From Methanobacteriota archaeon (lineage in GTDB: Archaea > Thermoplasmatota > SW-10-69-26 > JACQPN01), in contig JACQPN010000002.1 in assembly GCA_016207515.1 (NCBI GenBank), positions 12,350 through 76,349 on the forward strand: a stretch of DNA of 64,000 nt. The letters run 5' to 3'. A program made the translations under genes and the position numbers. This document shows, piece after piece, positions 17,922-45,417 of the stretch. Every line of letters starts with the position of its first letter. The stretch's first letter is position 1. The notes below the pieces were generated by a model. That model worked only from the letters and a program-made list of their open reading frames with translations. It ran no database searches and had not been told where the DNA came from.

Positions 17922-18107
17922 ATGGACAAACCCCAAGACCAGAGGGAGTACGTGATCTACACGTGCTACCCGATAGAAGAGTGCGGCTTCTCCGTGAGAA
18001 GCCACAACGAGGAGGAAGTGGTGGACATGGCGGTCATCCACGCCGAGAAAGGGCATAAGATGCGAGTCTCCAGGGCGGGCGTCAAAGGATTGATCAAGAA
18101 AGGGTAG
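17922..18107 (+). CDS. DUF1059-like small metal-binding protein, copy 1
   Basis: 61 aa; C..P...CGF.V.SH.EEEV......HAEKGH pattern. Confidence 0.65.
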   Translation: MDKPQDQREYVIYTCYPIEECGFSVRSHNEEEVVDMAVIHAEKGHKMRVSRAGVKGLIKKG

Positions 18108-18157
18108 GCGCCAGAGGATTCGAAGGCTTTTTTTGGGGCGAACGCTTGGGCCCACGC

Positions 18158-18340
18158 ATGGACGAGCCTACGCCAAAGAAATTCCACGTCTTCGTTTGCT
18201 TCCCGATCACCGATTGCGGCTTCACGGTGAAAAGCCACGACGAGGACGAAGTCATCGAGACGTACCTCCACCACGCCGAGAAGGTGCATGGAAAGAAGGC
18301 GTCGAAGGCGATGGCCAAGGGAATGATCAAGGTGGAGTGA
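18158..18340 (+). CDS. DUF1059-like small metal-binding protein, copy 2
   Basis: Paralog of 17922..18107 (FHVFVCFPITDCGFTVKSHDEDEVIETYLHHAEKVHG); ATG 18158 chosen (TTG 18146 possible). Confidence 0.65.
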   Translation: MDEPTPKKFHVFVCFPITDCGFTVKSHDEDEVIETYLHHAEKVHGKKASKAMAKGMIKVE

Positions 18341-20868: not shown

Positions 20869-21885
20869 CTAGGGAGGCCCGGACTCCGGCCAAGGCGCCG
20901 AGCGGAACAGGCTCGTCTTCTGGACGCACAGATTCGCCTTGTCCCCTCCCGTCTGGTTCGCCCCGAAGTGGTGGTTCCAGAAGTTCATGCGCCCGTCGAG
21001 GGTCCGCGAACAGAAGGTGCTCTCCCCGAAGACCCCGTACTCGGCGTTCTTCACGAGGTTGTTCGTGTTCACCCTCACGCCGTCGGAGAAGAGCTCCGCC
21101 CGCACGCCGATGCGGTTCATGTAGAACGTGTTGTTGATCACGCTCGCGTTCGTCGCCCCCGAGTCGAGGAACGCTCCGATGTCGCTTCCCGACACGTTGT
21201 TGCGGTAGATGACGCTAGAGCCCGCCGATGCGAGGTGGATGCCCCATGTCCGGCTTCCGTTGATGCGGTTGGCCTCGATGACTATCGATGCGGGCGGCGG
21301 GAAACCCCCCACGCGGACACCGGTCGCATAACCGCTGATGTTGTTGCCGGAGACGATGAACGTCCCGGGCGTGCTCACGATGTCGATCCCGCGCAGGTCG
21401 ACGGTGCAGCCGGGGCACACGAACGCGTTATCGTTGATAGTGACGTTCGTCGCGTTCGCGTAGACGAGGAGCCCCTGTGTCATCGCGTTGTTGCCGACGA
21501 TCCGGTTCTCTTGGACGACGAAATGCTCGCGGGTCCCGTAGAATTGGATGGCCGCGGCGAACCGGCATCCCGTGGCCGGCGTGTCGAGCGGGTAACCGTC
21601 CGTTATCGTCCACAACGCGACGATGTACGGCAGATCCTCTGTGCCGTCACCGGCAACGATGCCGTACTTCTCCAAGCGTTCGAGCGGCGTCTTCGAGGAG
21701 AGGTCTTCGTACACGCAAATGGGCGCATGCGTCGAGATCGTCACGCCGAGGGGCGCCGCCTCCGCGTGGGGACCCGCGCCCCCGACGAGTAGTATCGTCA
21801 CAATGCCGAGAAGCGTCGGAACGGCCGTCTCTCGCACGCGATACGCATGCGTCGCGGACGGTTCAACGTTCGCGCGGCAGAGCAT
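20869..21885 (-). CDS. secreted right-handed parallel beta-helix repeat protein (NosD/pectin-lyase-fold like)
   Basis: 338 aa; N-terminal signal-like segment; repeated N-x-[IV]-x-G-N/N-N-x-x-G motifs typical of beta-helix repeats. Confidence 0.78.
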   Translation of the reverse strand: MLCRANVEPSATHAYRVRETAVPTLLGIVTILLVGGAGPHAEAAPLGVTISTHAPICVYEDLSSKTPLERLEKYGIVAGDGTEDLPYIVALWTITDGYPLDTPATGCRFAAAIQFYGTREHFVVQENRIVGNNAMTQGLLVYANATNVTINDNAFVCPGCTVDLRGIDIVSTPGTFIVSGNNISGYATGVRVGGFPPPASIVIEANRINGSRTWGIHLASAGSSVIYRNNVSGSDIGAFLDSGATNASVINNTFYMNRIGVRAELFSDGVRVNTNNLVKNAEYGVFGESTFCSRTLDGRMNFWNHHFGANQTGGDKANLCVQKTSLFRSAPWPESGPP

Positions 21886-22002: not shown

Positions 22003-25000
22003 TCACGTCATGTCGTAGTGCGTAGTGCCGGCGCCTTCCGGCGAAACGTAGAACGCCTTGACCACGTTCTGCCCTGCTTGCGGCCGCAGGGGAAGCGTCG
22101 GTGGACTGAGGTTGCTTCCCACTATCCACCCGTTGAGCGAGATCAAGTGCCACCCGGGCAAGTACAGGCCTGCGCCGGCACCGGTATCCACGTCAAAGCC
22201 CACCGTGAACGTCGCGCGGCCGCCAGCGTCGGTCGTAAGGTCGAGTTTCAAGTCGGTGCGGGCCGTGAGCGGTGGCATGCCCGTCTCGACCACCGGGACG
22301 GTCCTGACGGCCCCAGTATAGGATACGTCGAACACGAGCGCCTCGCCTTCGACGGGCACTCCGTCGATGAAGACGACGCTCACGTTGCCCGTGACGGGCT
22401 TCGTGGGGTCGTTGAAACTGTCCGAGCGTCCCTCATCGTACGTCTCGAAGGGCGGCACCGGGACGATGCCGACCGTCGACGCCACGACGCCGACCTCCGC
22501 GTCCTGATCGAGGATTATCGTGTACGTCTTCTGCAAAGCGATCCGCAAGGGGTCCACTTCGACGGAGCGCGTCGCGAGGCCCATTTGGTAGCGCGCGACG
22601 ACGAACGTGCCGCCGGGGTTTATCGTGAGCCTTACTTCCAGCATGTCGTTGGCGCCCCACTCCCCGATGCCGAACGAGGCGTTCGCCCAACCGTCCGCCG
22701 TCACTGCGATCTCCGAATCGCCCGTCGAAAGCGTCGCTCCGGTCGAAAGGTCAACGTAGGCGAGCGCATACACGCTCGAGGTGAGGTTGAACGGCCTATC
22801 GCCGGGCGAGTGCACGAGGCGAAGCTCCACATCAAAGTTCGTCCCGCCGTAGACGCGGATCGTCTTTGAAACGGTCGAGGTCGCCCCACCCGTATCCGTG
22901 ACCCGGAGGCTCACCACGTAACTCGCCGACAGGGTGTAGGCGTGGCTCGGGCTCTGAGCCGTAGAGTTCGACCCGTCGCCGAAGTCCCACAGGTACTGGA
23001 GCGGCAGGTTCTCGGGGTCCGTCGAGGCGTCGATGAACTGGACGGCGACGTTCTCCACGGGTTGGACCGTCGCTACCGTGAAGTCGGCGGTCGGGAGCCC
23101 GTTGGCGACCGATACCGCGTGGACGATGACCGTCGAACCGCCGTCGTTGTCCGTGGCGGTCAGCGTGACATTGTAGGTGCCGATCGCGGAGAACGAGTAG
23201 TTGACGTCCGGCCCCGACGCGGTCCCGTTCGCGTCCCCGAAGTCCCAATCGAGGGTCACGACACTTCCATCGACGTCGAGTGCGGTCGAGTGGAACTCGA
23301 CCACCTGGGCCGCGATGGGAGAACCGGGGTTGAAGTTGAAATCCGCGCTCGGCGGCGCGTTGACCCGTATCGTCGTGTTCGTCGTCGACGAGCCGCCCGA
23401 ATTGTCGGTGACCGACAAGGTGACCGTGAACTGGCCGGCCGACGCAAACGAGTGGTTGACGATCGCGCCGCTGTCCGTCGTCGGCGTGTCGCTGAAGGCC
23501 CAAAGGCGCGCGACGATGCTGCCGTCCGGATCGGTGGAGGTGTCGGTGAAGAAGACCGTCTCGCCGATCTGCGGCACAGTCGGCCCGTACGTGAAGCTCG
23601 CGACCGGTAGCCGGTTTCGCACCGTGATGCTCGCGGAGGCGGAGGCGGACGCGCCCAGGTCGTCGGTCACCGTGAGGGTCACGACGTACACGCCCGGGTT
23701 CACGTAGGCGTGCGTGGTGTTGCGGATCGTGGAGTTGCTGGCGTCCCCGAAGTTCCAAAACCACGATACGATGGTCCCGTCGGGGTCAGAGCCCGTCGCG
23801 TTCATGTAGACGGTCTCGAAGGTGAGGACGTTGGCGGAGTTCGCCGTCCATTGCGCCGACGGCGGCCTGTTCACGGCGACTATCTTCGTCACGGAGCCCG
23901 TCGCACCGTCGTCATCGGTGACCGTGAGTGTGACCGAGTAGGCTCCCGAGCCGGGAAACGTATGGGACGGGTTCGCGTCGGTGCTTGTCGGGAGCGTGTC
24001 ACCGAAGTTCCAGAGATAAGAGACTACGACGCCGTCCGGATCCGAGGCTAGCTCCGTGAAGTTGACAGGTTCGCCGCGCCTTGCGACCGCGGGCGACCAT
24101 GAGAAGTCCGACACGGGGCCCCGGTTGAGGACCTGCAAGTTCACAAGGGCCGTGTTCGAGTAGCCGTCATCGTCGGTCACGGTGAGGCTGACGGTGTAGT
24201 TGCCGGAGTTCGCGTACGAATGCGTGGGGTTCGATGCGGCGGAGCCGTTCCCGTCGCCGAAGTCCCAAAGGAGCGACACGATGACGCCGTCTGCGTCCGT
24301 GGACGTGTCGTTGAACTGGATCGTCTGGCTAGTGAAGGGCACTGTGGGCGTGCGGGTGAAGCTTGCAAGCGGTGCCTGGTTGCCGACGTACATGCGCGTC
24401 TGCGTCGTGTTCGTTGCGCCATCGTCGTCGGTCACCGTGACGCTCACCGTGTAGTTGCCGTCGTCTGCGAACGAGTGGATCGGGGCTTGTACGGCGGACG
24501 TGTTCCCGTCGCCGAAATCCCAGAACCGGGTGACGATCGTCCCATCCATGTCGGTGGACGTATCGGAGAATTGGACCGGGCTCAGGTCGACTGGGAACGG
24601 AGGCGTGAAGGCAAACGACGCGACTGGAGCCCGGTTCAGGATAGTGATGTTCAGGGTCGTGGAATTGGAGAGAAGCGTGTTGTCCGTGTCGGTGAGGGTG
24701 ACTGTGTAGACGCCGTCGTCGACGTACTGGTGTTTGACCGTTATTCCGAGGGTCCCGCTGAGGTCCGTGTGCGTCGCGTGAACGATGGTGACCGGCTCGT
24801 TGTAGGCTGGGTCGTTGGCGCCGGGGTTCTGGAGATTGGCGTTGAGGTGCCCGTCGCCGAAATCGAAGCGGGAAAGGACGATGACGCCGTCGTCGGTGGA
24901 AAGGTCCGTGAACCTGATGTTGGTGAAAGTGTAGACGCCGAAGAACGGGGAGGCCTGGAGGAGCATCGTGGGCGGAGGGAATGATACGCATGTCTGCGGG

Positions 25001-26154
25001 TCGTTCTCGTCCACACAAAGGGGGCCTCCGAGGAGCGTCTGGTTGTGGCCAGCACCGGCACCCTGGGGGGAAACGATCTGGCGCGCGTATCCGTCGAGTG
25101 AGAGCCGCGCTTCGCGGGGGCCCACCTTGAAATAGGTCAGGACGCCGACGAAATCGGACACCGCGAATACGTTGTCCACTTTTCCCCACGATTCATACCA
25201 AACGCTGAGGTCGAAGTTGTTCTCGTCGAAGCTGATCGTGACGTTTCCGGTGGTCTCATTGTTGAACTGTCGCGTTTCCTGCGTCGTCGGCGTGAACTGG
25301 ATAAGCCCGATGGGCTGGTCCATGTAAGTGTAAGAATCGAGCGGCTTGCCATCCACTACGACCGCCGAGACGGGGATGTTCTTCGTGACATCGCCGCCGA
25401 TTGTCCTCTCTGTCTGGAGCCTCGCGAACCCGCCGGGGTTGAGTTCCACACCCGTCACTTTCTGGCTGTCGACGATGACGAAGGCGATCTTCGTGGTCTC
25501 CTCGTCCAAAGCACCCTTCGCGTCGGCCAACGAGTCGAGCGACTGCTTCGCATGTGCCTTGTTGTTCGTCGAGACTTGCTTCAGGTCCGACTCCGCGAAC
25601 ATCGCACTGTGCATGGTCCCGTCGAGATGGAGTTCCGCGCGCGTGGTGCCCGCGTTCGAGACACCATACTTGCCTTCGAAGTGGCGTAGCGTGATCACGT
25701 CCATCGGCGTGAGTTTCAGTTCGCGGTCCCCGACGAAGAGGCGCGCGTTGTCGCCGCTTTTGGTCCCGACCTTGAAGATCAGTTTATCGACTTTGCCCGT
25801 CCCCCAGAAATCGGATTCGATCTTCGCGCCGTTCAATTCCGCGAAAAGCACGGAGACGCCGCCATACGCGTCTCCGCCTGGACCTTGCGCCGTGTAGACG
25901 CGAAGGTCCGTCGGGACGCTCGAGACGTCGATCCCTGTCTCGCCGCCGGCGAACTGCGAGTAGGTGGCGGTGAACTGGGAAAAGAGCAGGCTGCCGATGA
26001 CGACCATGATGGCCAAAAGTTGCTTTATCAGCAAACTGGCCGCCTCCGCCCGTTCCCTCTTTCCAATCCTGCCCGCTCCTTCGACCTGCCGCTTAAGAGT
26101 GCCATGGGGACGGTCGATAGATAACCGGTTCTGCGTCACTCCAGTTGGGAACAA
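22003..26154 (-). CDS. giant cell-surface protein with ~8 tandem PKD domains
   Basis: 1383-aa ORF; ~8 repeats of the PKD signature W[DN]FGDG...H.[YF]...G; N-terminal hydrophobic signal-like segment (true start probably near 26007). Confidence 0.85.
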   Translation of the reverse strand: MFPTGVTQNRLSIDRPHGTLKRQVEGAGRIGKRERAEAASLLIKQLLAIMVVIGSLLFSQFTATYSQFAGGETGIDVSSVPTDLRVYTAQGPGGDAYGGVSVLFAELNGAKIESDFWGTGKVDKLIFKVGTKSGDNARLFVGDRELKLTPMDVITLRHFEGKYGVSNAGTTRAELHLDGTMHSAMFAESDLKQVSTNNKAHAKQSLDSLADAKGALDEETTKIAFVIVDSQKVTGVELNPGGFARLQTERTIGGDVTKNIPVSAVVVDGKPLDSYTYMDQPIGLIQFTPTTQETRQFNNETTGNVTISFDENNFDLSVWYESWGKVDNVFAVSDFVGVLTYFKVGPREARLSLDGYARQIVSPQGAGAGHNQTLLGGPLCVDENDPQTCVSFPPPTMLLQASPFFGVYTFTNIRFTDLSTDDGVIVLSRFDFGDGHLNANLQNPGANDPAYNEPVTIVHATHTDLSGTLGITVKHQYVDDGVYTVTLTDTDNTLLSNSTTLNITILNRAPVASFAFTPPFPVDLSPVQFSDTSTDMDGTIVTRFWDFGDGNTSAVQAPIHSFADDGNYTVSVTVTDDDGATNTTQTRMYVGNQAPLASFTRTPTVPFTSQTIQFNDTSTDADGVIVSLLWDFGDGNGSAASNPTHSYANSGNYTVSLTVTDDDGYSNTALVNLQVLNRGPVSDFSWSPAVARRGEPVNFTELASDPDGVVVSYLWNFGDTLPTSTDANPSHTFPGSGAYSVTLTVTDDDGATGSVTKIVAVNRPPSAQWTANSANVLTFETVYMNATGSDPDGTIVSWFWNFGDASNSTIRNTTHAYVNPGVYVVTLTVTDDLGASASASASITVRNRLPVASFTYGPTVPQIGETVFFTDTSTDPDGSIVARLWAFSDTPTTDSGAIVNHSFASAGQFTVTLSVTDNSGGSSTTNTTIRVNAPPSADFNFNPGSPIAAQVVEFHSTALDVDGSVVTLDWDFGDANGTASGPDVNYSFSAIGTYNVTLTATDNDGGSTVIVHAVSVANGLPTADFTVATVQPVENVAVQFIDASTDPENLPLQYLWDFGDGSNSTAQSPSHAYTLSASYVVSLRVTDTGGATSTVSKTIRVYGGTNFDVELRLVHSPGDRPFNLTSSVYALAYVDLSTGATLSTGDSEIAVTADGWANASFGIGEWGANDMLEVRLTINPGGTFVVARYQMGLATRSVEVDPLRIALQKTYTIILDQDAEVGVVASTVGIVPVPPFETYDEGRSDSFNDPTKPVTGNVSVVFIDGVPVEGEALVFDVSYTGAVRTVPVVETGMPPLTARTDLKLDLTTDAGGRATFTVGFDVDTGAGAGLYLPGWHLISLNGWIVGSNLSPPTLPLRPQAGQNVVKAFYVSPEGAGTTHYDMT

Positions 26155-34209: not shown

Positions 34210-34635
34210 TCATGCCTGTTTCTTGCGACCCTTGGTCGGACTGAACGAGATGACCTTGATGCCGAGCTTTCTTGCGGCCTGCAACTGCCTGTCATCAGCG
34301 GAGACAAGGGTTCCTCCGGTGGAGACGGCTGCCTCTAGGTACTCCGCGTCGTAGTACGTCACGCCGGTGGCGGCATCCCAGACGCGATCGTCGTCGGTGT
34401 TCAACGGAATCAGGTCGATTCCGAGGAAGACGGCGCGGTGAAGCTCCTTGGCCTCGGCGACCTTCAGGTCGCGACACTCTTTCTGTATGACCCGTCCGAG
34501 CTCGCTGTATGCGATGTGTGGAGCTTGAAGCGCCATGCCTTTCGCCGAGGTTTCGCTAAGCCAGGCCCGAAACTCCTCCGATCCCGCCTCATCGAGGAAC
34601 GATTTTGCCAAAGCGCTGGCATCCAAGACGAACAT
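34210..34635 (-). CDS. vapC: PIN-domain toxin VapC
   Basis: ORF 34210..34707; start MFVLDASALAKSFLDE (PIN acidic residues D5, E/D ~40, D ~100). Confidence 0.8.
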   Translation of the reverse strand: MFVLDASALAKSFLDEAGSEEFRAWLSETSAKGMALQAPHIAYSELGRVIQKECRDLKVAEAKELHRAVFLGIDLIPLNTDDDRVWDAATGVTYYDAEYLEAAVSTGGTLVSADDRQLQAARKLGIKVISFSPTKGRKKQA

Positions 34636-34636
34636 C

Positions 34637-34846
34637 CTAGTGCTCCTCGCGAGCTTCCCGTACGACGTCAGCCACGGGACGACTTGCGGGCCGCCGGTAC
34701 TTCGCAAGGGTGGCGTTGCGACGATCGATTCGGAGTCTTTCTGCGAGCTTCGTGAGGTCCTCCTTCACGGTCTCGGCGATCTTGACTCCCGCCTCGTCGA
34801 GCTCGTGCTGTAGCGCATCTGGAATACGCACGCTGATTACACCCAT
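34637..34846 (-). CDS. vapB: ribbon-helix-helix antitoxin VapB (CopG-like)
   Basis: 69 aa, MGVISVRIPDALQHELDE...; stop 1 nt from vapC start. Confidence 0.75.
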   Translation of the reverse strand: MGVISVRIPDALQHELDEAGVKIAETVKEDLTKLAERLRIDRRNATLAKYRRPASRPVADVVREAREEH

Positions 34847-35005
34847 GTGTTTACATGGTTGTAAGACAAGATAAAGTTTACTGCTGGTTCTTACGGCCCA
34901 GGAGGGAAGTTGGTTGCACGGCGTGGGCGCCTTCGCGACCGACGTGCGAACCCGCCGACACCGCCGGTTAGTTATTTATACTTCGTCAGCGCACGTATAC
35001 ATTGT

Positions 35006-35209
35006 ATGCCAGAAGACACGATGCTTCGCGTCCCAGTGGCGGTTCGCGAGCGCCTGCGACGCTACGGCGTGAAGGGCCAGACGTACGCCAACATCCTGAC
35101 GAACCTGATGGACGAGTTTGACCATCGAGAGTTCGTGAAGGAACAAATCGCTTTGTTGGATGAGGCGATCGAGGAGAAGCCGCGCCTAGTTAACCTTCGA
35201 GACCTCTGA
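35006..35209 (+). CDS. antitoxin (RelB/ParD-like) of RelE module
   Basis: ORF 34910..35209, start placed at ATG 35006 (MPEDTMLRVPVAVRERLRRYG...); stop overlaps the toxin start (ATGA). Confidence 0.6.
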   Translation: MPEDTMLRVPVAVRERLRRYGVKGQTYANILTNLMDEFDHREFVKEQIALLDEAIEEKPRLVNLRDL

Positions 35210-35475
35210 TGCCTTACCGGGTGATCCTCGGGCGGCGCGCCGAAAAGAACCTTCGCGCGCTACGTGCCGATGAACGGGCGCGAGTCAAGGACGCTCTCCT
35301 CGTGCTGGAGGAAGACCCGATCCACCCCAGGCCCGGGGCGGACATCAAGCGGCTCAAGGGCACAAGACGCCTCTACCGCGTGCGCGTAGGCCCGTGGAGA
35401 GCCATCTATGGCATTCACGATGGCGACGTAATTATCACGGACTTCTTCAGGAAGAAGCGCGGATACGACATCTGA
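35209..35475 (+). CDS. relE: RelE/ParE-family toxin
   Basis: 88 aa; YRVRVGPWRAIYGIHDGDVIITDFFRKKRGY matches the RelE core. Confidence 0.8.
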   Translation: MPYRVILGRRAEKNLRALRADERARVKDALLVLEEDPIHPRPGADIKRLKGTRRLYRVRVGPWRAIYGIHDGDVIITDFFRKKRGYDI

Positions 35476-35617: not shown

Positions 35618-36847
35618 ATGGATCGTTCCAGCGGCCGCGTCCAAGTCGGCCTCGCGTTCCTCATCGTGTTCGTCGCGGGCTGCCTCGGCCCGCCGCCGAC
35701 GGGCGATGACGACGACGATGGACGGGACGAAGACCCTTCAACGGACCGACCGGGCGTGGGCGACAACGACGCTTCCGAGCATTTTGCGTCCGATGATGAC
35801 GGGTCTAACGAGGAGGGCGGCGACGACGACCCCGACGCCGCGTTCGAACGCGTCGAATGGAACCGCCGCATCAATGCGTCGTTTGCTCCGGTCGACTGCC
35901 CGAGGCCGCCCCGGCGCGAGTACAATGACACGTACTACAAGGGCCCGCTCATCGACACGCACATGCACATCCCGCACCTTCCCGATTCCCCGATCGGCGA
36001 GCCCGTGCCCGACGAGAAGATGCACCCCATCGCCGGTGTCAACGTCCGCATGGGCGAGATCGCGTGCCTCCTCAAGTGGGAGGGGACCAAGAGCGCCGTA
36101 TCGTTCTTCCCGGTATTCCCTCACATCGACTGGCAATCCCTCGAAGTCGTGAACCGGACGATGTCGCTCTATCCCGACCTCTTCATCCCGTTCATCATGG
36201 CGCCAGCCGCGAACGACGACCCACCGACCGTTGACGAGGGGCCACTTCGCGGAATGCTTGAGGTACATCCAGGGCTCTTCCGCGGCTATGGGGAAATCGG
36301 TCTCTACTCCCGCTCCGAAGGCGGACGCGACTTGAGGCCGGACGACCCCATCCTCAAACGCGTCTATCTCGTCCTCCGCGAACACAAGCTCGTCGCCTAC
36401 CTCCATCCCGGCGACGGCCACGCAGCCTCACTCGACGCGGTCCTCACGGAGAACCCGGACCTCAACCTCATCGTCCACGGAGACCAGATCGCGCCCGCTA
36501 TCGGCGCGTTGATGGACGCACACGACAACGTGTTCTTCACCGCGAACGACCTCTACGGCGACCAGTACCTGCTTCACCAGCGCGAGAACGCGACGACGTT
36601 CCTCGAAAAGACGAAGGACTTCGGCCCAATGCTTAGAAAGGATTGGGACGACTGGAAAGCGATCATCGAAGCGCATCCCGACCAGTTCATGTGGGGCACG
36701 GATCGGGGCGGCGTCGCGGTGTGGACGTACGACCACGCGGTCGGCGACCGGCTCTCGGATTACGGGCGCGCTTTCATCGGAGGACTCGATCCGGCCGTGC
36801 AGGAGAGGTTCGCTTTCAAGAACGCCGAGAGGCTGTTTTCGCGGTAG
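35618..36847 (+). CDS. secreted lipoprotein, amidohydrolase-superfamily (TIM-barrel metal-dependent hydrolase) domain
   Basis: Signal peptide plus lipobox (FVAGC), acidic low-complexity linker, then metal-binding His motifs (DTHMHIPH, HPGDGH, IVHGDQ). Confidence 0.7.
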   Translation: MDRSSGRVQVGLAFLIVFVAGCLGPPPTGDDDDDGRDEDPSTDRPGVGDNDASEHFASDDDGSNEEGGDDDPDAAFERVEWNRRINASFAPVDCPRPPRREYNDTYYKGPLIDTHMHIPHLPDSPIGEPVPDEKMHPIAGVNVRMGEIACLLKWEGTKSAVSFFPVFPHIDWQSLEVVNRTMSLYPDLFIPFIMAPAANDDPPTVDEGPLRGMLEVHPGLFRGYGEIGLYSRSEGGRDLRPDDPILKRVYLVLREHKLVAYLHPGDGHAASLDAVLTENPDLNLIVHGDQIAPAIGALMDAHDNVFFTANDLYGDQYLLHQRENATTFLEKTKDFGPMLRKDWDDWKAIIEAHPDQFMWGTDRGGVAVWTYDHAVGDRLSDYGRAFIGGLDPAVQERFAFKNAERLFSR

Positions 36848-37038: not shown

Positions 37039-38187
37039 TTGAATTTGGACCTCGCCTGGAACCCGCTCGGCGCCATCGGCATCGTGGTGGGCGTCCTCGC
37101 TTGCGCCATGGCGGCGCTCGTGTGGAAGGCGCGGGCCGACCGGGCCCAAAACCGCTGGCTCGCGGCCTACCTCTTCGGCAACGGCTTGTACTTCGTCGCC
37201 TACAACGGCCTCCGACTCTTCGCGACCGATCCCCGTGACGCCTACGCGCTCATGGCCTCAGGTTGGTCGGTGAATCTGCTGTCCGTCGGAGGATACTTTG
37301 CCTTCCTCTCTACGTTGGATTCCCCTCTCGTCTCTTGGATGCGAAGGTACCGGATCGTGTGGGCCGTGATGGGCGGCTCTGCCCTGGTCGCGGCATATGT
37401 CGTCGTCCAGCCGGGTGCTTGGTTCCCGGGCGTGCAGCCACTCGGTGGTTTTTCGGGATGGGGCGCAGTCTCCTCCCCGCTTAGAAACCTCGTCCTCCTG
37501 GTCCTCACGGGCCTCTTTATCTTTTCCGCAGCGCCGGCGATCGACGCTTGGCGCCGAGCGAAGACGCCGCTCCTACGTCGCCAAGGTTGGATCTTTGGCG
37601 CCACGTTCGCGACGACATCGCTCGGTTGGGCGGCCTTCATAATATGGTACCTGGCCTCGGGAACGGGCACATTCACGCCGTTTGTCGTGGTCGTCAATTT
37701 CCTGTGGCAGGCCCTGCTTTCGCTTGCCCTCTCCCTTGGCCTTGCGTACGGGATCCTGAAGACCCAACTTTTCGACGTCGACATCAAGCTCAAGTGGACG
37801 TTGCGAAGCGGCACGCTCGCGGGCGCCTTCTTGGGCGTTTTCTTCGTGGCAAGCGAGGCAGCGCAATCGGTACTCTCCGCACAACTCGGTCCCATTGTCG
37901 GGCTCGTCGCAACGGGTGCTCTCGTGTTCGCGTTGGCACCGCTCCAGCGCGCCGCGGACAGGATCGCGGACAAGGCCATGCCGCGCGTTTCGGACGACGC
38001 CGAGTACAGGACGGTGAGAAAGCGCGAGGTGTACGCCGCGGCCGTCGAGAGTGCTCTCGAAGAGGGCGACATACGCCCGAAGGAGCGCGGGATGCTCGCG
38101 ACACTTGCGGACCAGCTTGGGCTAGGTCCGAAGGAGATGCACGAGATCGAGGTTGAGGCGCGTTCGGAAAGAGCGCGGGTGGCGTAG
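37039..38187 (+). CDS. array member A: polytopic membrane protein (~9 TM) with conserved C-terminal module
   Basis: 382 aa, TTG start; seven N-terminal TM helices, then conserved TM hairpin (FFVASEAAQ...ALVFALAPL) and cytoplasmic helical tail. Confidence 0.75.
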   Translation: MNLDLAWNPLGAIGIVVGVLACAMAALVWKARADRAQNRWLAAYLFGNGLYFVAYNGLRLFATDPRDAYALMASGWSVNLLSVGGYFAFLSTLDSPLVSWMRRYRIVWAVMGGSALVAAYVVVQPGAWFPGVQPLGGFSGWGAVSSPLRNLVLLVLTGLFIFSAAPAIDAWRRAKTPLLRRQGWIFGATFATTSLGWAAFIIWYLASGTGTFTPFVVVVNFLWQALLSLALSLGLAYGILKTQLFDVDIKLKWTLRSGTLAGAFLGVFFVASEAAQSVLSAQLGPIVGLVATGALVFALAPLQRAADRIADKAMPRVSDDAEYRTVRKREVYAAAVESALEEGDIRPKERGMLATLADQLGLGPKEMHEIEVEARSERARVA

Positions 38188-38316
38188 ATGCCCCTCTCGC
38201 CGGGTTTCCTCGTCACGCAGGCGACTACCCTCCTTCTCGTCGTGCTGGGCGCGTTCGTCCTGACCGTGCGACCGCGCACGCGTGCGCCGGCTTTCCCGGT
38301 CACGGAGGCGGCCTGA
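38188..38316 (+). CDS. array fragment B1: 42-aa ORF carrying only the family N-terminal TM motif
   Basis: ATG immediately after A stop; LLLVVLGAFVLTVRPRTRAP matches the N-terminal LG...L[RK]PRT motif of C-G; likely gene remnant or split gene. Confidence 0.35.
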   Translation: MPLSPGFLVTQATTLLLVVLGAFVLTVRPRTRAPAFPVTEAA

Positions 38317-38832
38317 GTGCACTTGCTCGACGCCGTGGGGCTCACCGACTCCGTTTCGGTGCTAGTGTTCACTCTCCTGGGCCTTTGGGTCCTTTCGCTT
38401 CGCTGGCGTTCGGCCACGAACATCACGTTCGCCGTCTGCGCGATCGCTTTCTCGGCGGGCATAGTCCCGGTCAATCTTTTCACCGCCCGGACTCACTTGG
38501 ATCCCCCCATATCCGCCGCCGCGGACGTCGTCGCGAAGCGCGCCGTCTCGATCACGCGCGACGGCGATCCCGTCCCGTGCCCCATCCCGACGCTGCCTTG
38601 CGACGCAGCGCCGCGCGGCGCGCCGATCCTGCCCGACGACACCCGATACTCGCTCGTCATCGGCGACTACGTCGCGCTCGGCGGCGACGGATACGACAGG
38701 CTCCCCGACCTCGGTGCGAGCGGCGCGCTCGAAGCGGACGTGCTCATTGAGCACCTCGAGCGCCTCGGCACGGTCGAGCCGCGCGTCGACGGCCGCGTGT
38801 GGCACGTCGCGCGACTTCAGGGGGTGCCCTGA
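38317..38832 (+). pseudogene. array fragment B2: family-like N-terminal TM segment fused in frame to a 5'-nucleotidase C-terminal-domain-like tail
   Basis: GTG after B1 stop; N-terminal TM (LVFTLLGLWVLSLRWRS), C-terminal YSLVIGDYVALGGDGYDRL...VDGRVWHV resembles the 5'-nucleotidase C-terminal domain; no conserved family C-terminal module. Confidence 0.35.
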
Positions 38833-40073
38833 TGCACTTGCTGGGCGAGGCCTGGTTCTCGTGGGTCTCCTTCGTGGTCGCCGATGTGATCCTCGTTGCG
38901 CTCGGCATTCTCGTGCTCCGGCTCAAGCCGCGGACGCCGGCGAGCTGGGCTCTTGGCGTCTTCGCGACCGCCTGGGGAGCCAACTTCATCGTGGCGCTCG
39001 CGCCGTTCTTCTTCGACATCGACCTTTCGAGGCCAGGGTATCTGGAGGGTCAAACCCTTCTTCGCGTCGTCCTGAGAGCCATCTCCGCCGGCGGCCTCGT
39101 GGCGATGATGCTGACCTTCCCGCGGGCCCTGCCGCGAGCCGAGCGCCGCGCCCTCGTCGGGCCCGCGATCTTTGGCGCGGTCTGGGCGTTTGTGCTCATC
39201 GCCCCGCGATGGGCGATCCCACCGTGGGCGCTCCTCGACGTGGGAACCGCGATTGTCGGGTACGGGTTCGTCTGGGCGTACCTGCTGCTTCTCACGTCCC
39301 GGTGGCGGCGCGCGACCGACGCGGGCGAACGGCACCAGATCGTGCTCACGTTCGTGGCGCTCGCGCTGGGCGTCAGTTTCCAAGCGGGACAATACGCGGG
39401 AGGCGCGAGCCAGCTCGCTTCGTCAGGCGTCCTGACGTTCGTGACCCAGCTTGCCCCACCCGTCTGGCTTGCGGTCGTCTGGCTCCGGGGGGCCCACGGG
39501 GCGCAAGCGCGCGTCGAGCGGAATCTCGCCATCCTCCCGCTCGCGCTCGCGTTCGTGGGATTCCTCGTGGGGAGGAGGAGCCCCTACGATCCCTCGGGCC
39601 TCCTCGCCCTTGGCACCGTCGCGATCCTCACCTATGCGATCGTGCGTCACCAAGTCCTCGGCATCGACGTCAAGCTCCGCTTCGCCATCAGCAAGTCCAC
39701 GGTCGCGGCCGTGTTCATCGCGGTTTTCTTCGTCGCGAGCGAAGCGGCGCAGCAGTTCTTCGGCGAAGCGTTCCAATCCAATTACGTGGGCATCCTGGCG
39801 GCGGGTGCTCTCGTGTTCGCGATCGCGCCGTTGTCGCGCCTCGCGGACCGGATCGCGGAGAAGGCGGTGCCGGTTCCCACGGCACCTCCGGAGCCCACGG
39901 GGCTACCTTTTCGCGAAAAGCTCTACCGGGATGCAGCGCGCTACGCGCTCCGAGACGGCACGATGACACGCATCGAGGAGTTGCATCTTGCCCAGCTTGC
40001 CGCCGAGCTCGGGCTGCGCGCGGATCGGGCGGTCGAACTGCGCCATGAGATCGAGGAGGAGATGAGGGCGTGA
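38832..40073 (+). CDS. array member C: polytopic membrane protein with conserved C-terminal module
   Basis: ATG overlapping B2 stop (ATGA); module ISKSTVAAVFIAVFFVASEAAQQFFGEAFQSNYVGILAAGALVFAIAPLSRLADRIAEKAVP plus tail YRDAARYALRDGTMTRIEELHLAQLAAELGL. Confidence 0.8.
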   Translation: MHLLGEAWFSWVSFVVADVILVALGILVLRLKPRTPASWALGVFATAWGANFIVALAPFFFDIDLSRPGYLEGQTLLRVVLRAISAGGLVAMMLTFPRALPRAERRALVGPAIFGAVWAFVLIAPRWAIPPWALLDVGTAIVGYGFVWAYLLLLTSRWRRATDAGERHQIVLTFVALALGVSFQAGQYAGGASQLASSGVLTFVTQLAPPVWLAVVWLRGAHGAQARVERNLAILPLALAFVGFLVGRRSPYDPSGLLALGTVAILTYAIVRHQVLGIDVKLRFAISKSTVAAVFIAVFFVASEAAQQFFGEAFQSNYVGILAAGALVFAIAPLSRLADRIAEKAVPVPTAPPEPTGLPFREKLYRDAARYALRDGTMTRIEELHLAQLAAELGLRADRAVELRHEIEEEMRA

Positions 40074-41356
40074 TCGTTTTCCACACGGAGTGGGACGCGA
40101 TCGTGAACGCGATTACGGCCGCGATCCTCGCGGGGTTCGGAGCCTGGATCTGGGCGCTTCGGCCGCGGACCCGACTCACCCGTATGCTCGCGCTCTTTGC
40201 CGTCGCGCACGGCGTTCTCTACACGTACATCAACTTGGTCGAGGTCCTCCCTGTGGGAGGCCCCGCTTGGATCGCGGATACGCTCCTCCGGGGCGCGCTC
40301 TTCGGGGCCGCCGCGTGGGGTCTGCTCGCGATGGGACGCGAAGTCCTGCGGCCTCTCGGCCCCGGGAGCGATCGTCTCTGGAAGGTCGCCGTCGCGACCG
40401 TCGGGATTCTCGCGGTCGTAATCACGGGCCCGGTGCTTTTTGGCCTCCCCGATTCCTCCCCTCTCGCCTGGGTCGCGATCGCCGCCGAGCTTTTCGGCCT
40501 CGCAACGTTCATTCTCGGATTCACCGCCCTTCCGGTCGTGTTTGTGTGGCTCTACCGGCAGCCCCTCGGGGAGGACGTTGAGCGGACGAGGCGCAACGCC
40601 ATCGTGATGAGCAACGCGCTCGTCCTCTGGCCGGCGCTCTATGGGATTGAGGCCGCGATCGGGGGCGGTATCGGCGGATACCTAGTTCTCATCGGTGTGG
40701 TCGCGCTCGGGCTCCTCTGGCTGGCCAACATCGGAGTCGATCCCCGGACAGCCCGCGAGGCTCGCGACGCGGCGCTTCTCGCCTTCGCCCTGCTCCTCAT
40801 CGGAACCGTCGACAGACTGATCCTCTCCGACGCGCTCGGCTACTCTCGCGCAGAGGGCCCGTTCTATGGAATCGCGCGCCTCCTGACGGTCGTCGCGCTC
40901 TCCTACGCCGTCCTGAAGCACTCCGTGCTCGGCTTCGACGTGAACCTACGCTTTGCAATCAGCAAGTCCACCATCGCCGCCGTCTTCGTCGCCGTCTTCT
41001 TCGTCGCGAGCGAAGCGGCGCAGCAGTTCTTCGGTGAAGCGTTCCAGTCGAGCTACGTGGGCATCCTGACGGCGGGTGCGCTCGTGTTCGCGATCGCGCC
41101 GTTGTCGCGGCTTGCGGACAGGATCGCTGAGAAGGCGGTGCCGATCGCGGAGGGCCGTCCCGCCGCCACGACGGCGAAGGAGGAAGCGTACAAACGCGCG
41201 TTGCGCATCGCGCTGCGGGACCGCAAGCTCACGCGCGAGGAGGACATCCACGTGCACGAGCTCGCGGAGCACCTCGGCATCGGCGCAGGCCGAGCGATGG
41301 CATTGCGTGTAGAGATTGAACGCGAATTGGCCGCATCGACCGGAGGCGGGACTTGA
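40070..41356 (+). CDS. array member D: polytopic membrane protein with conserved C-terminal module
   Basis: GTG overlapping C stop (GTGA); C-terminal module nearly identical to C and E2 at protein and DNA level. Confidence 0.8.
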   Translation: MIVFHTEWDAIVNAITAAILAGFGAWIWALRPRTRLTRMLALFAVAHGVLYTYINLVEVLPVGGPAWIADTLLRGALFGAAAWGLLAMGREVLRPLGPGSDRLWKVAVATVGILAVVITGPVLFGLPDSSPLAWVAIAAELFGLATFILGFTALPVVFVWLYRQPLGEDVERTRRNAIVMSNALVLWPALYGIEAAIGGGIGGYLVLIGVVALGLLWLANIGVDPRTAREARDAALLAFALLLIGTVDRLILSDALGYSRAEGPFYGIARLLTVVALSYAVLKHSVLGFDVNLRFAISKSTIAAVFVAVFFVASEAAQQFFGEAFQSSYVGILTAGALVFAIAPLSRLADRIAEKAVPIAEGRPAATTAKEEAYKRALRIALRDRKLTREEDIHVHELAEHLGIGAGRAMALRVEIERELAASTGGGT

Positions 41357-41595
41357 CGATTCCGCTCGGCCGGATCCTCAACCTCGCCGGGAGCTCGGTG
41401 ATTGTGCTGCTCGGGCTCGCCGTCGCATTCCTTGGCCGAGGACGAGGTCCAGACCTTGGAGTGACTCGGTTCTCCATCGGCATCGGCGGGCTCGCTCTCG
41501 CGAAGCGCCACATGCGCGACCTTGTGGCCACCTGGGCGGGAGAGGACGCAACTGGTCGCGAAGCGGCGCCCGACTTGGAGGCGCGGTCCCCGTGA
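41353..41595 (+). CDS. array fragment E1: 80-aa ORF with family N-terminal TM motif
   Basis: TTG overlapping D stop; LAGSSVIVLLGLAVAFLGRGRG matches the family N-terminus; ends at TGA overlapping the GTG of E2. Confidence 0.4.
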   Translation: MTIPLGRILNLAGSSVIVLLGLAVAFLGRGRGPDLGVTRFSIGIGGLALAKRHMRDLVATWAGEDATGREAAPDLEARSP

Positions 41596-42932
41596 ATCTG
41601 CTCTCCGGGGCCCTCGTGCCCGCCTACGCCGGGACCCTCACAAACCTGCTCCTCGCTGCGGCTCTCCTCAGGTGGGGCCCAAGGCGGGGGGCATCGGTCT
41701 GGTTCGTCGCTTTCCTGGTCGCGGACGGCGTTGGCCTGGCGCTCAACGCAATCGAGAACCACGTCTTCCAGACCTTCGACGCCACCACGTCGAGCGCGTC
41801 AGAGATCGAAGCGACACGGGCGCTACTCACGGGGCTCGATGTCGCCGTGGGCGTTCTGCTCGTCTCTGCCCTGTTCCTGATCGTTTTCGCAACGATCGAA
41901 TTCTTGGGGCGCGCCCCGCGATGGCTGGCACCGGCGGTCCTCGCGACCGCGAGCACGGCGGCGCTCTGGGGGATTCTCGACCCTCCCGCAGGATACTTCC
42001 TCCGCGAGGGCCGCCTCATACACGTCGTCGACTCCTCCTATTTCTTCCTCACAACGCTTCCTGCCTTCGCAAGCCAAGGCGTCGCGCTTCTCGTGCTCGC
42101 GCGGCGACCAGCCGGCGATCCCAGCTCACCCACGCGCCGCTCTCACCTCCTCCTTGGCATCGGTCTCCTCGTGTATCCTCTTCATCGTGGCGCCTATCTT
42201 GTGGTGGACTACTTCCTCGACCCGCTGTCTGTAGCGCGAGTAACTGCCTCCAATCGGTTCGTCCTGCTCGGCGAGCTGGCGACCGCCGTGTTCCTCCTCT
42301 TCGCCGCCTACCTTGCCATCATGCGGCTTGCACGCACACATCCCGAGCACGCGGGCCTCGTTCTCGCGGCCGGCGTGGGCCTCGGCTCCGGGATACTGCG
42401 TGCCCTGACGGATGCGCTCCCGTCCTACTTCTATTTCGGCGTCGCGAACCTCGTGCTGCCGCTCGTCGCTACGTACGCGCTGCTCCGGCACAACCTGTTC
42501 GGTCTCGATTTCAGGGTTCGGTGGGCGATCTCGAAGTCCACGATCGCGGCGGTCTTCATCGCCGTCTTCTTTGTGGCGAGCGAGGCGGCGCAGCAGTTCT
42601 TCGGCGAAGCGTTCCAATCCAATTACGTTGGCATCCTGGCGGCGGGTGCTCTTGTGTTCGCGATCGCACCGTTGTCGCGGCTTGCGGACCGGCTCGCTGA
42701 GAAGGCGGTGCCGGTGGCCGCCGGAACCGGGCCCGTCGAGGCGAGCGCGTCCGACACGCGCGGAGCCGACGCGTACCGACACGCGGTGCGCTTGGCGCTT
42801 CGCGACCGGCGCCTCACGCCCGGTGAAGAGGTCGCTTTGGCGCACGTCGCGCAGGGTCTCGGACTCACGCCTGTTGAGGCCATTCGGCTCCGCCACGAGG
42901 TCGAGGCGGAGACCGGGAAGGAGGTGCGCTAA
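41592..42932 (+). CDS. array member E2: polytopic membrane protein with conserved C-terminal module
   Basis: In-frame part of ORF 41316..42932 starting at GTG 41592; C-terminal module identical over long stretches to C and D. Confidence 0.75.
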   Translation: MNLLSGALVPAYAGTLTNLLLAAALLRWGPRRGASVWFVAFLVADGVGLALNAIENHVFQTFDATTSSASEIEATRALLTGLDVAVGVLLVSALFLIVFATIEFLGRAPRWLAPAVLATASTAALWGILDPPAGYFLREGRLIHVVDSSYFFLTTLPAFASQGVALLVLARRPAGDPSSPTRRSHLLLGIGLLVYPLHRGAYLVVDYFLDPLSVARVTASNRFVLLGELATAVFLLFAAYLAIMRLARTHPEHAGLVLAAGVGLGSGILRALTDALPSYFYFGVANLVLPLVATYALLRHNLFGLDFRVRWAISKSTIAAVFIAVFFVASEAAQQFFGEAFQSNYVGILAAGALVFAIAPLSRLADRLAEKAVPVAAGTGPVEASASDTRGADAYRHAVRLALRDRRLTPGEEVALAHVAQGLGLTPVEAIRLRHEVEAETGKEVR

Positions 42933-42990
42933 ACTGGCTCTCGACGCGCGGTTCGTAATCACCGCAGGAAGCGGCGCGCTATGGGGCCTC

Positions 42991-44166
42991 ATGGGTGTCG
43001 TGATCCTCGCACTCGGCAGGAGCCGACGGGAGAACGTGGCGCTGGGGGCCCTCGCCCTATCGTTTGGTGCGATGTTCGTGTCGAACAACCTCGCCTTCGA
43101 GCCCGGAGCTGACGCGCTCCCAGTCATGTGGGGCTCGGCCCTCTTGGCCGTTGTCGCCGGTCTCGCCGCCCTCGCCGTGGCATGGACGACAGAGGGCCTC
43201 CCACGCGCGCCGGTCGTCGTCGCGGGAGCCGTCGGGGCCGCTTGGCAGCTCCTCGTGCCGATGGGACCCGTGTACGCGGCGGTGAACGCGGCGCGCTTCC
43301 CGCAGCCCGTGGCGGCGGCGTTCTTCACGAACGTCGCGTCTCCGCTTTTCGTCATCGCGTTGGCGCTCCTCATCGGGCTCCTTGCCGCCTTCGCCCTCGC
43401 CCCGAGGAGACTCGCGATGGGTGATCCGCGCCGTCCGCCGCGAAGGCTTCTGATGTACGCGTTCGGCCTCTACCTCGCGTACTCGATGGGCGCCAACGTG
43501 GTCGCGTACGACTTGAGCGGCTATGTCGTACTCTTCCCACTCGTCGTCGCACTTGCGGTGGCGCTGCTCGTCGCTGGCGCCGCGCCGGGCGGGCTGCCCG
43601 AACGTGACGGGGCGCTCGTCATCCTCGCGGCGGGCCTCGCCGGCGCGATCTCCGAGACCTGGGGAGGGGCGACCACGTCGGGCCTTGGCGTCGGCATCCT
43701 CCGCATCGTCGGCGTTGCGGTCCTTGCGTACTCCGTGTTCCGCTACGACCTCCTCGGCGTGCCGCTCCCGCGTATCGCCGAACACCGCGGCAGCCTTGCG
43801 ATGGCCTCGCTGGCCTCGCTCTTCATCGTCGCGCAGATCGCGGAGAACTACCTCAGCGCGGAGTACGGCCTCTTGATGGGTGGCGTGGTGGCGGGCGCGC
43901 TCCTCTTCGCCGCGAACCCCATACAACGGGCGATGGAGAGGACGACCGCTCCGGTCGGGCCCCATCGTGCTCCGGCGACGGTCGAGCGCCGCGAGGAGAG
44001 CGAGCGTGCCTACAGGGTGGCGTTACGCCGCTTCCTCGTTGACGGGGATATCAGCGCGGAGGAGGAGATCGCCTTGGCCCACCTTGCGGATGAGGCGGGC
44101 GTGACGGTGCGGCGAACAATCGAACTCCGCCACGAGGTCGAGCGCGAGTTGGGGAGGCGGGGCTGA
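42991..44166 (+). CDS. array member F: polytopic membrane protein with conserved C-terminal module (start uncertain)
   Basis: First in-frame ATG after E2 stop is 42991; homology to G begins at CTG 42934 (LALDARFVITAGSGALWGL vs VLDLSAASLVRAGSGVLFL), so the start may be non-canonical or lost. Confidence 0.7.
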   Translation: MGVVILALGRSRRENVALGALALSFGAMFVSNNLAFEPGADALPVMWGSALLAVVAGLAALAVAWTTEGLPRAPVVVAGAVGAAWQLLVPMGPVYAAVNAARFPQPVAAAFFTNVASPLFVIALALLIGLLAAFALAPRRLAMGDPRRPPRRLLMYAFGLYLAYSMGANVVAYDLSGYVVLFPLVVALAVALLVAGAAPGGLPERDGALVILAAGLAGAISETWGGATTSGLGVGILRIVGVAVLAYSVFRYDLLGVPLPRIAEHRGSLAMASLASLFIVAQIAENYLSAEYGLLMGGVVAGALLFAANPIQRAMERTTAPVGPHRAPATVERREESERAYRVALRRFLVDGDISAEEEIALAHLADEAGVTVRRTIELRHEVERELGRRG

Positions 44167-45417
44167 TTGGTTCTCGACCTCAGCGCGGCTTCGCTCGTTC
44201 GCGCGGGAAGCGGTGTACTGTTTCTCCTTGTCGGGCTCGCGATGATCGGCCTCGGTCGTCGGAAGCGCGAGAACCTGGCCGTCGGTGTGGCGGCAGTCGC
44301 GTTCGGCCTTGCTTTCGTCGTCAACAACATCGATCCGTCAGGCTCGGTCGTCGCGCAGATCGTGCTTGCCCTGGTTTGCGCCGCCGCGCTCGCCGTGCCG
44401 GTGGCTTCCTCGAAAAGGGCCGCCGCGTTCACGGCATTTGTCGCGCTGTCGCTTGTCGGACTCCTCGCGCTATCGACGCCAGCCCAAGTCGTCGGCTTCG
44501 CGGGAGTTCCCATCCCACCTGAGGCTTGGACGGGTTATTACCAGTCCCTCTTCGGCTACCTCCCAATGGTGGCGGCGGTCCTTGGGTACGCTCTGATGCA
44601 GGCGCTGCGATGCAGTAGCGAGTCGGACGAGTGCAGCGCCCGGGCATCAGCGCTTCTTGTCGCCGGGTGGGGGATCTATCCTGCCTTCCTCACGGGCGGA
44701 CAGGTTGCCATCGTTGCGACGCTTCGGTTCGGGCTGACGCCTCCCGGGCTCGCGACCACGGGCGTCCTTGCCCTCGCCGTCGCGGTCATCGTGGCGATGC
44801 TCCTCTACTCGACGCGCCGCACGAAGAGAGCCCGTAATGTCGCGTGGCTTCTCCTGGCATGCGAACTGGCCGGGATGGTGGATCAGGGCTTGGGCGGGAC
44901 CTATGTCACTCCATGGGTCGGTGTCGCGCGCTCGATTGGTGCGGTGATGATTGCGGTGGCGGTCTTTCGCGAGGCGGCACTAGGTTTTGAACTCGGTCTT
45001 CCGACGATCCGCCGCGGAACGACGGCGACGGTGGTTCTCGCGGGCTTCTTCATCGTCGCCCAGATCGCGCAGAACTTCTTGAGTGATGAGTACGGGCTGG
45101 TGATGGGGGGCGTGGTCGCGGGAGCGCTGCTTTTCGCGGCGAACCCCATCCAGCGCGCGATCGAGAGGGACTGGGCCGACCGTGCGCAAGCCACCACATC
45201 AGCGGCGTTTCCCATGGCAAGGGGGGCGCCGGCCGCCGCGACGGCGAGCAAGGAGGAGGCGTACCGCAACGCGCTGCGTATCGCGCTACGTGACCGCGTC
45301 CTCACGGAAGACGAGGAAGTCCAACTCGCGCATCTTTCCGACGAATTGGGCCTCACGCATAGGCGGGCAAGAGAGATCCGAAACGAGGTGCAGCGCGAGG
45401 CCGGGGCGCGGGAGTAA
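44167..45417 (+). CDS. array member G: polytopic membrane protein with conserved C-terminal module
   Basis: TTG right after F stop; C-terminal module FFIVAQIAQNFLSDEYGLVMGGVVAGALLFAANPIQRAIER plus tail EEAYRNALRIALRDRVLTEDEEVQLAHLSDELGL. Confidence 0.8.
   Translation: MVLDLSAASLVRAGSGVLFLLVGLAMIGLGRRKRENLAVGVAAVAFGLAFVVNNIDPSGSVVAQIVLALVCAAALAVPVASSKRAAAFTAFVALSLVGLLALSTPAQVVGFAGVPIPPEAWTGYYQSLFGYLPMVAAVLGYALMQALRCSSESDECSARASALLVAGWGIYPAFLTGGQVAIVATLRFGLTPPGLATTGVLALAVAVIVAMLLYSTRRTKRARNVAWLLLACELAGMVDQGLGGTYVTPWVGVARSIGAVMIAVAVFREAALGFELGLPTIRRGTTATVVLAGFFIVAQIAQNFLSDEYGLVMGGVVAGALLFAANPIQRAIERDWADRAQATTSAAFPMARGAPAAATASKEEAYRNALRIALRDRVLTEDEEVQLAHLSDELGLTHRRAREIRNEVQREAGARE

Follow-up and report, generated by a model that had tools for sequence, protein, structure and literature searches.

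Two probable type II toxin-antitoxin cassettes, VapBC and RelE-like, side by side in the chromosome of an uncultured Thermoplasmatota-like archaeon

Pairs of a PIN-domain toxin with a ribbon-helix-helix (RHH) antitoxin, and of an RHH antitoxin with a RelE toxin, are among the three commonest combinations in toxin-antitoxin (TA) systems of type II (Makarova, Wolf and Koonin 2009, PMC2701414). For the archaeal pair aRelE-aRelB, a review lists the DNA-binding fold of the antitoxin aRelB as unknown (PMC4803016). Here we describe a VapBC pair and a RelE-type pair that adjoin each other at positions 34,210 to 35,475 of a 64,000-nucleotide stretch of contig JACQPN010000002.1 (assembly GCA_016207515.1), which we call the window. 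Their two-gene architecture and toxin superfamilies are the same as in the 2009 catalogue, whereas the RHH assignment of both antitoxins comes here from sub-threshold profile matches and low-confidence structural models. We consider it highly likely that these genes form two independent, intact type II TA cassettes, and that both landed at neighboring sites on the chromosome of a Thermoplasmatota-like euryarchaeon that is uncultured. The window carries archaeal markers (aIF2-beta, the RNA polymerase subunit Rpo6/K and a thermosome), and the nearest relatives of the TA proteins are found in Thermoplasmatota metagenome-assembled genomes (MAGs) and on unbinned metagenome contigs. All four proteins have exact matches in GenBank, on a contig of 337,851 bp in a MAG labelled 'Euryarchaeota archaeon'.

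An original prediction, made from the DNA sequence of the window, had proposed a VapBC module and an adjacent RelE-type module, each with its antitoxin gene first. All four open reading frames are present with the coordinates it claimed, and the arrangement was borne out: both toxin domains score above their Pfam cut-offs, and both cassettes are conserved elsewhere. The close spacing predicted within each pair was also found. A single base separates the TAG of vapB from the ATG of vapC (TAG-G-ATG), and the TGA of the second antitoxin has one base in common with the ATG of relE (TGATG). The two modules had been described as back to back; they are in fact head to head, and are transcribed divergently from a shared spacer of 159 bp (34847-35005; 52.8% G+C). 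GenBank already names the toxins (VapC family; RelE/ParE family), while both antitoxins are entered as 'hypothetical protein'. Independent gene calls on identical metagenome contigs agreed with these genes in all but one respect: they began the plus-strand antitoxin at the second ATG (35021), giving 62 aa. We rejected this alternative in favor of the start at 35006, because the N-terminal MP(E/D)xQTM is conserved in homologues, GenBank calls a protein of 67 aa, and a TATA-like box lies about 29 nt upstream.

The first toxin is a PIN-domain protein. VapC matched the Pfam PIN model (PF01850) at 29.0 bits, against a gathering cut-off of 23.6, over residues 3-122 of 141. Four acidic residues are expected in an active PIN nuclease, and D5, E45, D96 and D114 are invariant among 12 relatives with 49-100% identity; from their positions in the PIN profile and from established knowledge, we take these residues to be the canonical quartet. 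A profile built from the 12 relatives found its closest solved counterparts in two PIN proteins of Pyrobaculum, PAE0151 and PAE2754 (E=2.1e-6 and 2.2e-4, respectively). The close VapBC family is small, with 12 VapC clusters and 9 VapB clusters in a word-index search.

The second toxin matched the Pfam family ParE_toxin (PF05016) at 33.9 bits, against a cut-off of 23, over residues 5-84 of 88. This family spans two activities despite its name, and the match is therefore compatible with a ParE-like poison of DNA gyrase as well as with a RelE-like toxin that cleaves mRNA on the ribosome. The GenBank name, 'RelE/ParE family', leaves the same latitude, and the cut-off of the NCBIfam RelE/StbE subfamily was not reached. 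However, the family profile matched solved structures of the RelE type only, namely Pyrococcus horikoshii aRelE (1WMI, 5.4e-10), Methanocaldococcus jannaschii RelE3 (3BPQ, 1.2e-6) and ribosome-bound Escherichia coli RelE (about 0.01), and no ParE was among the matches. Moreover, R41, L49, R57, R64 and R84, which align to the functionally important residues R40, L48, R58, R65 and R85 of P. horikoshii aRelE, are invariant among seven relatives. We thus regard a gyrase poison as very unlikely. Because the RelE/StbE cut-off is missed, the 88-aa toxin is best called an archaeal aRelE-like superfamily member, rather than RelE/StbE proper.

Both toxins keep their small partner genes. In 7/7 homologous loci (five of them distinct), the gene directly upstream of vapC is a 69-aa homologue of vapB, and in 6/6 the one directly upstream of relE is an antitoxin homologue of 67 or 68 aa. 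Antitoxin and toxin genes abut or overlap in the same way across homologous loci. Purifying selection acts on all four genes, with ratios of nonsynonymous to synonymous substitution (dN/dS; three homologues each) of 0.07-0.10 for vapB, 0.14-0.20 for vapC, 0.10-0.33 for the 67-aa antitoxin gene and 0.07-0.15 for relE. Therefore, the pairs are not chance reading frames, since the toxins exceed Pfam thresholds, both cassettes recur on other contigs, and dN/dS is 0.07-0.33 throughout.

The families of the antitoxins are less sharply defined. The VapB-like protein had no match in Pfam. Its full-length alignment to the NCBIfam model of Sulfolobus-type VapB (NF050799) gave E=2.6e-5 and 24.7 bits, where the cut-off is 60. 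The same model was matched by all 10 members of the close VapB-like family (best E=1.6e-7). An AlphaFold2 (AF2) model from a 10-sequence alignment, with a mean predicted local distance difference test score (pLDDT) of 68.6, has an extended N-terminus followed by helices at residues 10-18, 25-50 and 58-68. This predicted topology is compatible with an RHH domain followed by a toxin-binding tail.

For the 67-aa partner of the RelE-like toxin, the Pfam models RHH_10 and DUF7557 scored 16.8 bits (cut-off 27) and 13.4 bits (cut-off 25), respectively. An exhaustive phmmer search of 1.84 billion proteins returned 23 representative clusters at E<=1e-3. DUF7557 was matched by 16 of 20 aligned sequences, comprising the window protein and 19 of the 23 representatives (best E=1.6e-9), and weak RHH_10 matches appeared in 4/4 close homologues (best E=5.9e-4). 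A single-sequence AF2 model (pLDDT 57.6) has an extended N-terminus and helices at residues 11-19, 27-37 and 41-57. This antitoxin looks RHH-like and related to DUF7557. It had been labelled RelB in the original prediction; it is RelB-like in its position and pairing, but does not belong to the RelB family, as its matches are the weak ones to RHH_10 and DUF7557. In Pfam and NCBIfam, no model of the RelB family gave a match at E<=1, and sequence and profile searches revealed no similarity to aRelB. Thus, among the domains expected by the prediction, PIN and RelE/ParE were found above threshold, but RHH appeared in sub-threshold matches only.

Several points weigh against two intact cassettes with RHH antitoxins and a RelE-type toxin. 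Neither antitoxin reached a curated family threshold in Pfam or NCBIfam. Sequence and profile searches of both against solved structures gave no credible relative, returning designed repeat proteins and noise; the one suggestive match was to the N-terminal strand of Mycobacterium tuberculosis MazE7 (E=0.25). The RHH fold of both proteins is only suggested by their low-confidence AF2 models (pLDDT 68.6 and 57.6), and a Foldseek search of the PDB with the VapB-like model, the only antitoxin model run, found nothing. The relE-like toxin scored 13.7 bits in the NCBIfam RelE/StbE subfamily (TIGR02385), where the cut-off is 27.9, and the weight of its five invariant positions draws on mutagenesis of aRelE, said to be the work of Takagi and colleagues in 2005, in which those residues were reportedly important for translation inhibition. 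Finally, the conserved boxes next to the two promoters, described below, could equally be basal promoter elements rather than operators. The antitoxin role of both small genes is argued mainly by the genetics, because the pairing is kept in 7/7 and 6/6 loci, the junctions are the same, and the genes are under purifying selection.

We found that homologous cassettes occur in a different neighborhood each time. VapBC homologues lie next to thioesterase and helix-turn-helix genes, next to argininosuccinate lyase, next to argininosuccinate synthase and AbiEii, and after a gene of the metallo-beta-lactamase fold. A further VapBC homologue (69 + 139 aa) sits within a ribosomal-protein operon, between the RNase P subunit Rpp29 and S17, and the operon is striking as an insertion site for a toxin cassette. 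The same Rpp29-S17 insertion (locus L021, 2503-3151; GCA_964643795.1, CAZXUC010000049.1) also holds a gene pair of 71 + 138 aa and PDDEXK_3 fragments. Homologues of the RelE cassette were found next to an SRPBCC protein, next to an AbrB-PIN_3 pair, between DUF92 and DoxX, and adjoining EF-1alpha. One of them is flanked by the AbrB/MazE-PIN_3 pair and by an unannotated pair of 97 + 65 aa (locus L007, 4853-6889; locus L008, 1554-3590). Because this homologue adjoins both pairs, clustering of TA genes is a recurrent feature of the lineage, with different partners. The two cassette types stood side by side in none of the homologous loci inspected, and the simplest account of their juxtaposition in the window is therefore that two insertions happened to coincide.

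These data also bear on whether one or both modules have decayed or been domesticated, such that the toxin has ceased to be a conditional poison, being either inactive or put to use as a regulator or housekeeping RNase. Chromosomal TA loci often decay, and the two antitoxins are too divergent for family assignment. However, catalytic residues do not vary among the relatives, purifying selection holds for each of the four genes, and the coupled reading frames are intact. The cassettes also travel as antitoxin-toxin pairs from one unrelated context to another, as expected of active addiction modules. We judge decay or domestication to be very improbable, and intact cassettes remain our preferred reading.

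The divergent spacer contains a candidate promoter for each operon (Table 1). On the vapB side, the BRE/TATA-like element (transcription factor B recognition element and TATA box) has the form (C)GTAAACYTTWW and is conserved in six cassettes from unrelated contexts; because it lies 24-35 nt from the ATG, the vapB mRNA is predicted to be leaderless or nearly so. Closer to the gene, 6/6 cassettes share an ATGTA(A/T)AC box that occupies -12 to -5. It forms part of an inverted repeat over the start codon with 12-nt arms that are 92% complementary. On the other side, the antitoxin-relE operon has a WWATACT element at a constant distance in five cassettes, with a purine-rich, BRE-like AAAR immediately upstream, and from the usual archaeal spacing between TATA box and start codon its mRNA would likewise be leaderless or near-leaderless. 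The promoter-proximal box of this operon shares the invariant positions GT.A.CG..G.ATAC...GTATGC among five cassettes in unrelated contexts, and its half-sites, GTATAC and GTATGC, are 9 nt apart. The ATGTAAAC and GTATAC...GTATGC boxes, within 34847-35009, are candidate operators, and may serve autorepression. A search of the locus against Rfam for non-coding RNA gave nothing at E<=1. A scan for bacterial sigma-70 promoters and terminators was set aside as uninformative, as the host is archaeal (aIF2-beta, Rpo6, thermosome).

Table 1. Genes and candidate regulatory elements of the two cassettes, with coordinates in the window.
Feature	Coordinates	Strand	Remarks
vapB-like antitoxin	34846-34637	minus	69 aa; GenBank MBI4392311.1 'hypothetical protein'
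vapC toxin, PIN domain	34635-34210	minus	141 aa; GenBank MBI4392310.1
antitoxin of RelE-type toxin	35006-35209	plus	67 aa; GenBank MBI4392312.1 'hypothetical protein'
relE-like toxin	35209-35475	plus	88 aa; GenBank MBI4392313.1
candidate archaeal BRE/TATA of vapB (GTAAAC-TTTATC)	34870-34881	minus	24-35 nt before ATG
inverted repeat over vapB start codon (TTACACCCATGT / ACATGGTTGTAA)	34837-34864	minus	candidate operator/promoter-proximal element
candidate TATA box of antitoxin-relE operon (TTATTTATACT)	34972-34982	plus	24-34 nt before ATG 35006
promoter-proximal box GTCAGCGCACGTATACATTGTATGC overlapping antitoxin start codon	34985-35009	plus	candidate operator

The shared spacer raises the question of whether the two cassettes are co-regulated as a functional unit, with one antitoxin cross-binding the operator of the other across the 159 bp. 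Cross-binding would be possible because a box of the GTA(A/T)AC type precedes the start codon by about 11 nt in each promoter, and both antitoxins look RHH-like. No interaction of the two promoters is required, since about 90 bp of G+C-rich DNA separate the TATA-like boxes, and we think co-regulation unlikely. The 5' coding region of vapB holds an inverted copy (11/13 nt; 34824-34836 vs 34986-34998) of the promoter-proximal box of the relB-like gene, TCAGCGCACGTAT. We do not regard this copy as a signal, because chance alone would yield about 0.5 pairs of this kind and the copy codes for the invariant VISVRIP.

In our reading, each cassette is a two-gene operon with the antitoxin first. It probably yields a leaderless mRNA from a BRE/TATA promoter of its own within the 159-bp spacer, and translation of the toxin is coupled to that of the antitoxin. 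By analogy with characterized families, each small antitoxin would dimerize through an N-terminal RHH-like domain and repress the operon that encodes it by binding the conserved box at the promoter, while its C-terminal helix or tail would wrap around the toxin and neutralize it. Degradation of the labile antitoxin would free VapC, a presumptive Mg2+-dependent PIN endoribonuclease, to cut a specific site in tRNA or rRNA, and would free the RelE-like toxin to cut mRNA in the ribosomal A site. Both kinds of cleavage would halt translation and growth. Toxicity, its neutralization, the RNA targets and the binding of operators are inferred from the same families, as would be any physiological role, such as addiction, stabilization or a stress response.

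We next consider the surroundings of the locus, for which the original prediction had raised the idea of an accessory or defence-island-like segment. The first half of this idea may hold for the cassettes themselves. G+C content at third codon positions (GC3) is 0.69-0.76 in the TA genes and 0.806 +/- 0.036 (minimum 0.729) in 40 other genes of the window. Because of this low GC3 and the different neighborhood at every homologous cassette, the cassettes look acquired or accessory, and they are probably mobile. The flanks, in contrast, are ordinary chromosome. PurF lies upstream, together with a secreted protein and one of the glyoxalase fold; on the downstream side, five paralogous membrane proteins come after a lipoprotein-like Amidohydro_2 protein; and further out are a SpoU methylase, PadR, a PKD-repeat surface protein, a DRG GTPase, Hsp20 and the thermosome.

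The low GC3, together with the shifting contexts of homologous cassettes that sometimes adjoin other TA pairs or AbiEii, could also point to a defence or genomic island, with the two modules serving chiefly for abortive infection against viruses. However, none of the roughly 30 neighbors searched with Pfam is an integrase, a transposase or a defence gene; they are housekeeping, surface or membrane proteins. PADLOC gave no match for the four TA proteins and, among four neighbors, a single weak one (E=3e-4) to a membrane protein. There is no tRNA gene within the 64-kb window, and flanking direct repeats are short and at chance level. The 'defence-island-like' label is therefore unsupported, since no PADLOC match rises above noise, about 30 neighbors include no integrase, and tRNA genes are absent. 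Relatives of either toxin family were also not found on the viral contigs of IMG/VR, and a viral origin was rejected. Taken together, a defence or genomic island of this kind seems highly unlikely, and we retain two ordinary, separately inserted cassettes. A plasmid origin was also rejected: there was no DNA match, and only distant protein matches (32-42% identity) to annotated plasmid TA toxins, one of them on a Thermococcus plasmid. Ten other small proteins of the window were scanned and contained no further TA pair.

Searches for a sister genome returned none. The 409-aa neighbor downstream of relE had no match in peptide-pattern scans of GTDB genomes, and PurF retrieved from them only relatives of 48-51% identity (four bacteria and one Methanomicrobiales MAG). 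Scans of JGI metagenomes with the 409-aa protein and with the antitoxin alignment gave no match.

Some of the neighbors have features of their own. The 409-aa protein (35618-36847) combines a lipobox-like N-terminus (LIVFVAGC) with an acidic linker rich in D/E, and matches Amidohydro_2 at 27.9 bits, barely over the cut-off of 26.4. The five paralogous polytopic membrane proteins stand in a row on the plus strand (37039-45417; 382, 424, 428, 538 and 416 aa), each with 7-10 TM-like segments, and share a C-terminal domain of about 150 aa with 33-66% identity. They have no Pfam match above threshold, and weak ones to TerB (E=1.3e-3) and to PADLOC PDC-S48 (E=3e-4). Elsewhere in the window, tandem DUF1059 proteins of 61 and 64 aa (17922-18107 and 18146-18340) are 38 nt apart. 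On the minus strand, a 1383-aa protein (22003-26154) carries at least 7-8 PKD repeats, and the adjoining NosD/beta-helix protein (20869-21885) together with it resembles a surface-protein cluster.

The importance of these results beyond annotation is little. The entries MBI4392311.1 and MBI4392312.1 can be given new labels, as cognate antitoxins to the VapC and RelE/ParE toxins already named next to them, and the conserved promoter boxes provide operator candidates in a lineage without genetics. The variable contexts, including the VapBC cassette in a ribosomal-protein operon, illustrate cassette mobility in Thermoplasmatota-like archaea. The relation of the RelE partner to DUF7557 hints that this Pfam family is an RHH antitoxin family partnered with RelE-type toxins in archaea; if so, the protein would define an antitoxin family that has so far not been annotated as such.

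Compared with known archaeal VapBC systems (PAE0151 and PAE2754; Sulfolobus-type VapB), the first cassette is alike in its PIN domain with four acidic residues, its upstream coupled antitoxin and the full-length alignment of the latter to NF050799, but the similarity is remote: PAE0151 is matched by the profile only (E=2.1e-6), and the VapB-like protein reaches 24.7 bits out of the 60 needed. The second toxin has the same length as aRelE (1WMI) and M. jannaschii RelE3 (3BPQ), 88-90 aa, aligns with them end to end, and similarly follows an upstream antitoxin with a stop/start overlap. In contrast to the aRelE-aRelB pair, its antitoxin has no detectable similarity to aRelB and appears RHH-like and related to DUF7557. 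The prediction was correct and the locus is an ordinary one, which differs from known pairs only in its divergent antitoxins, which fall outside current family models.

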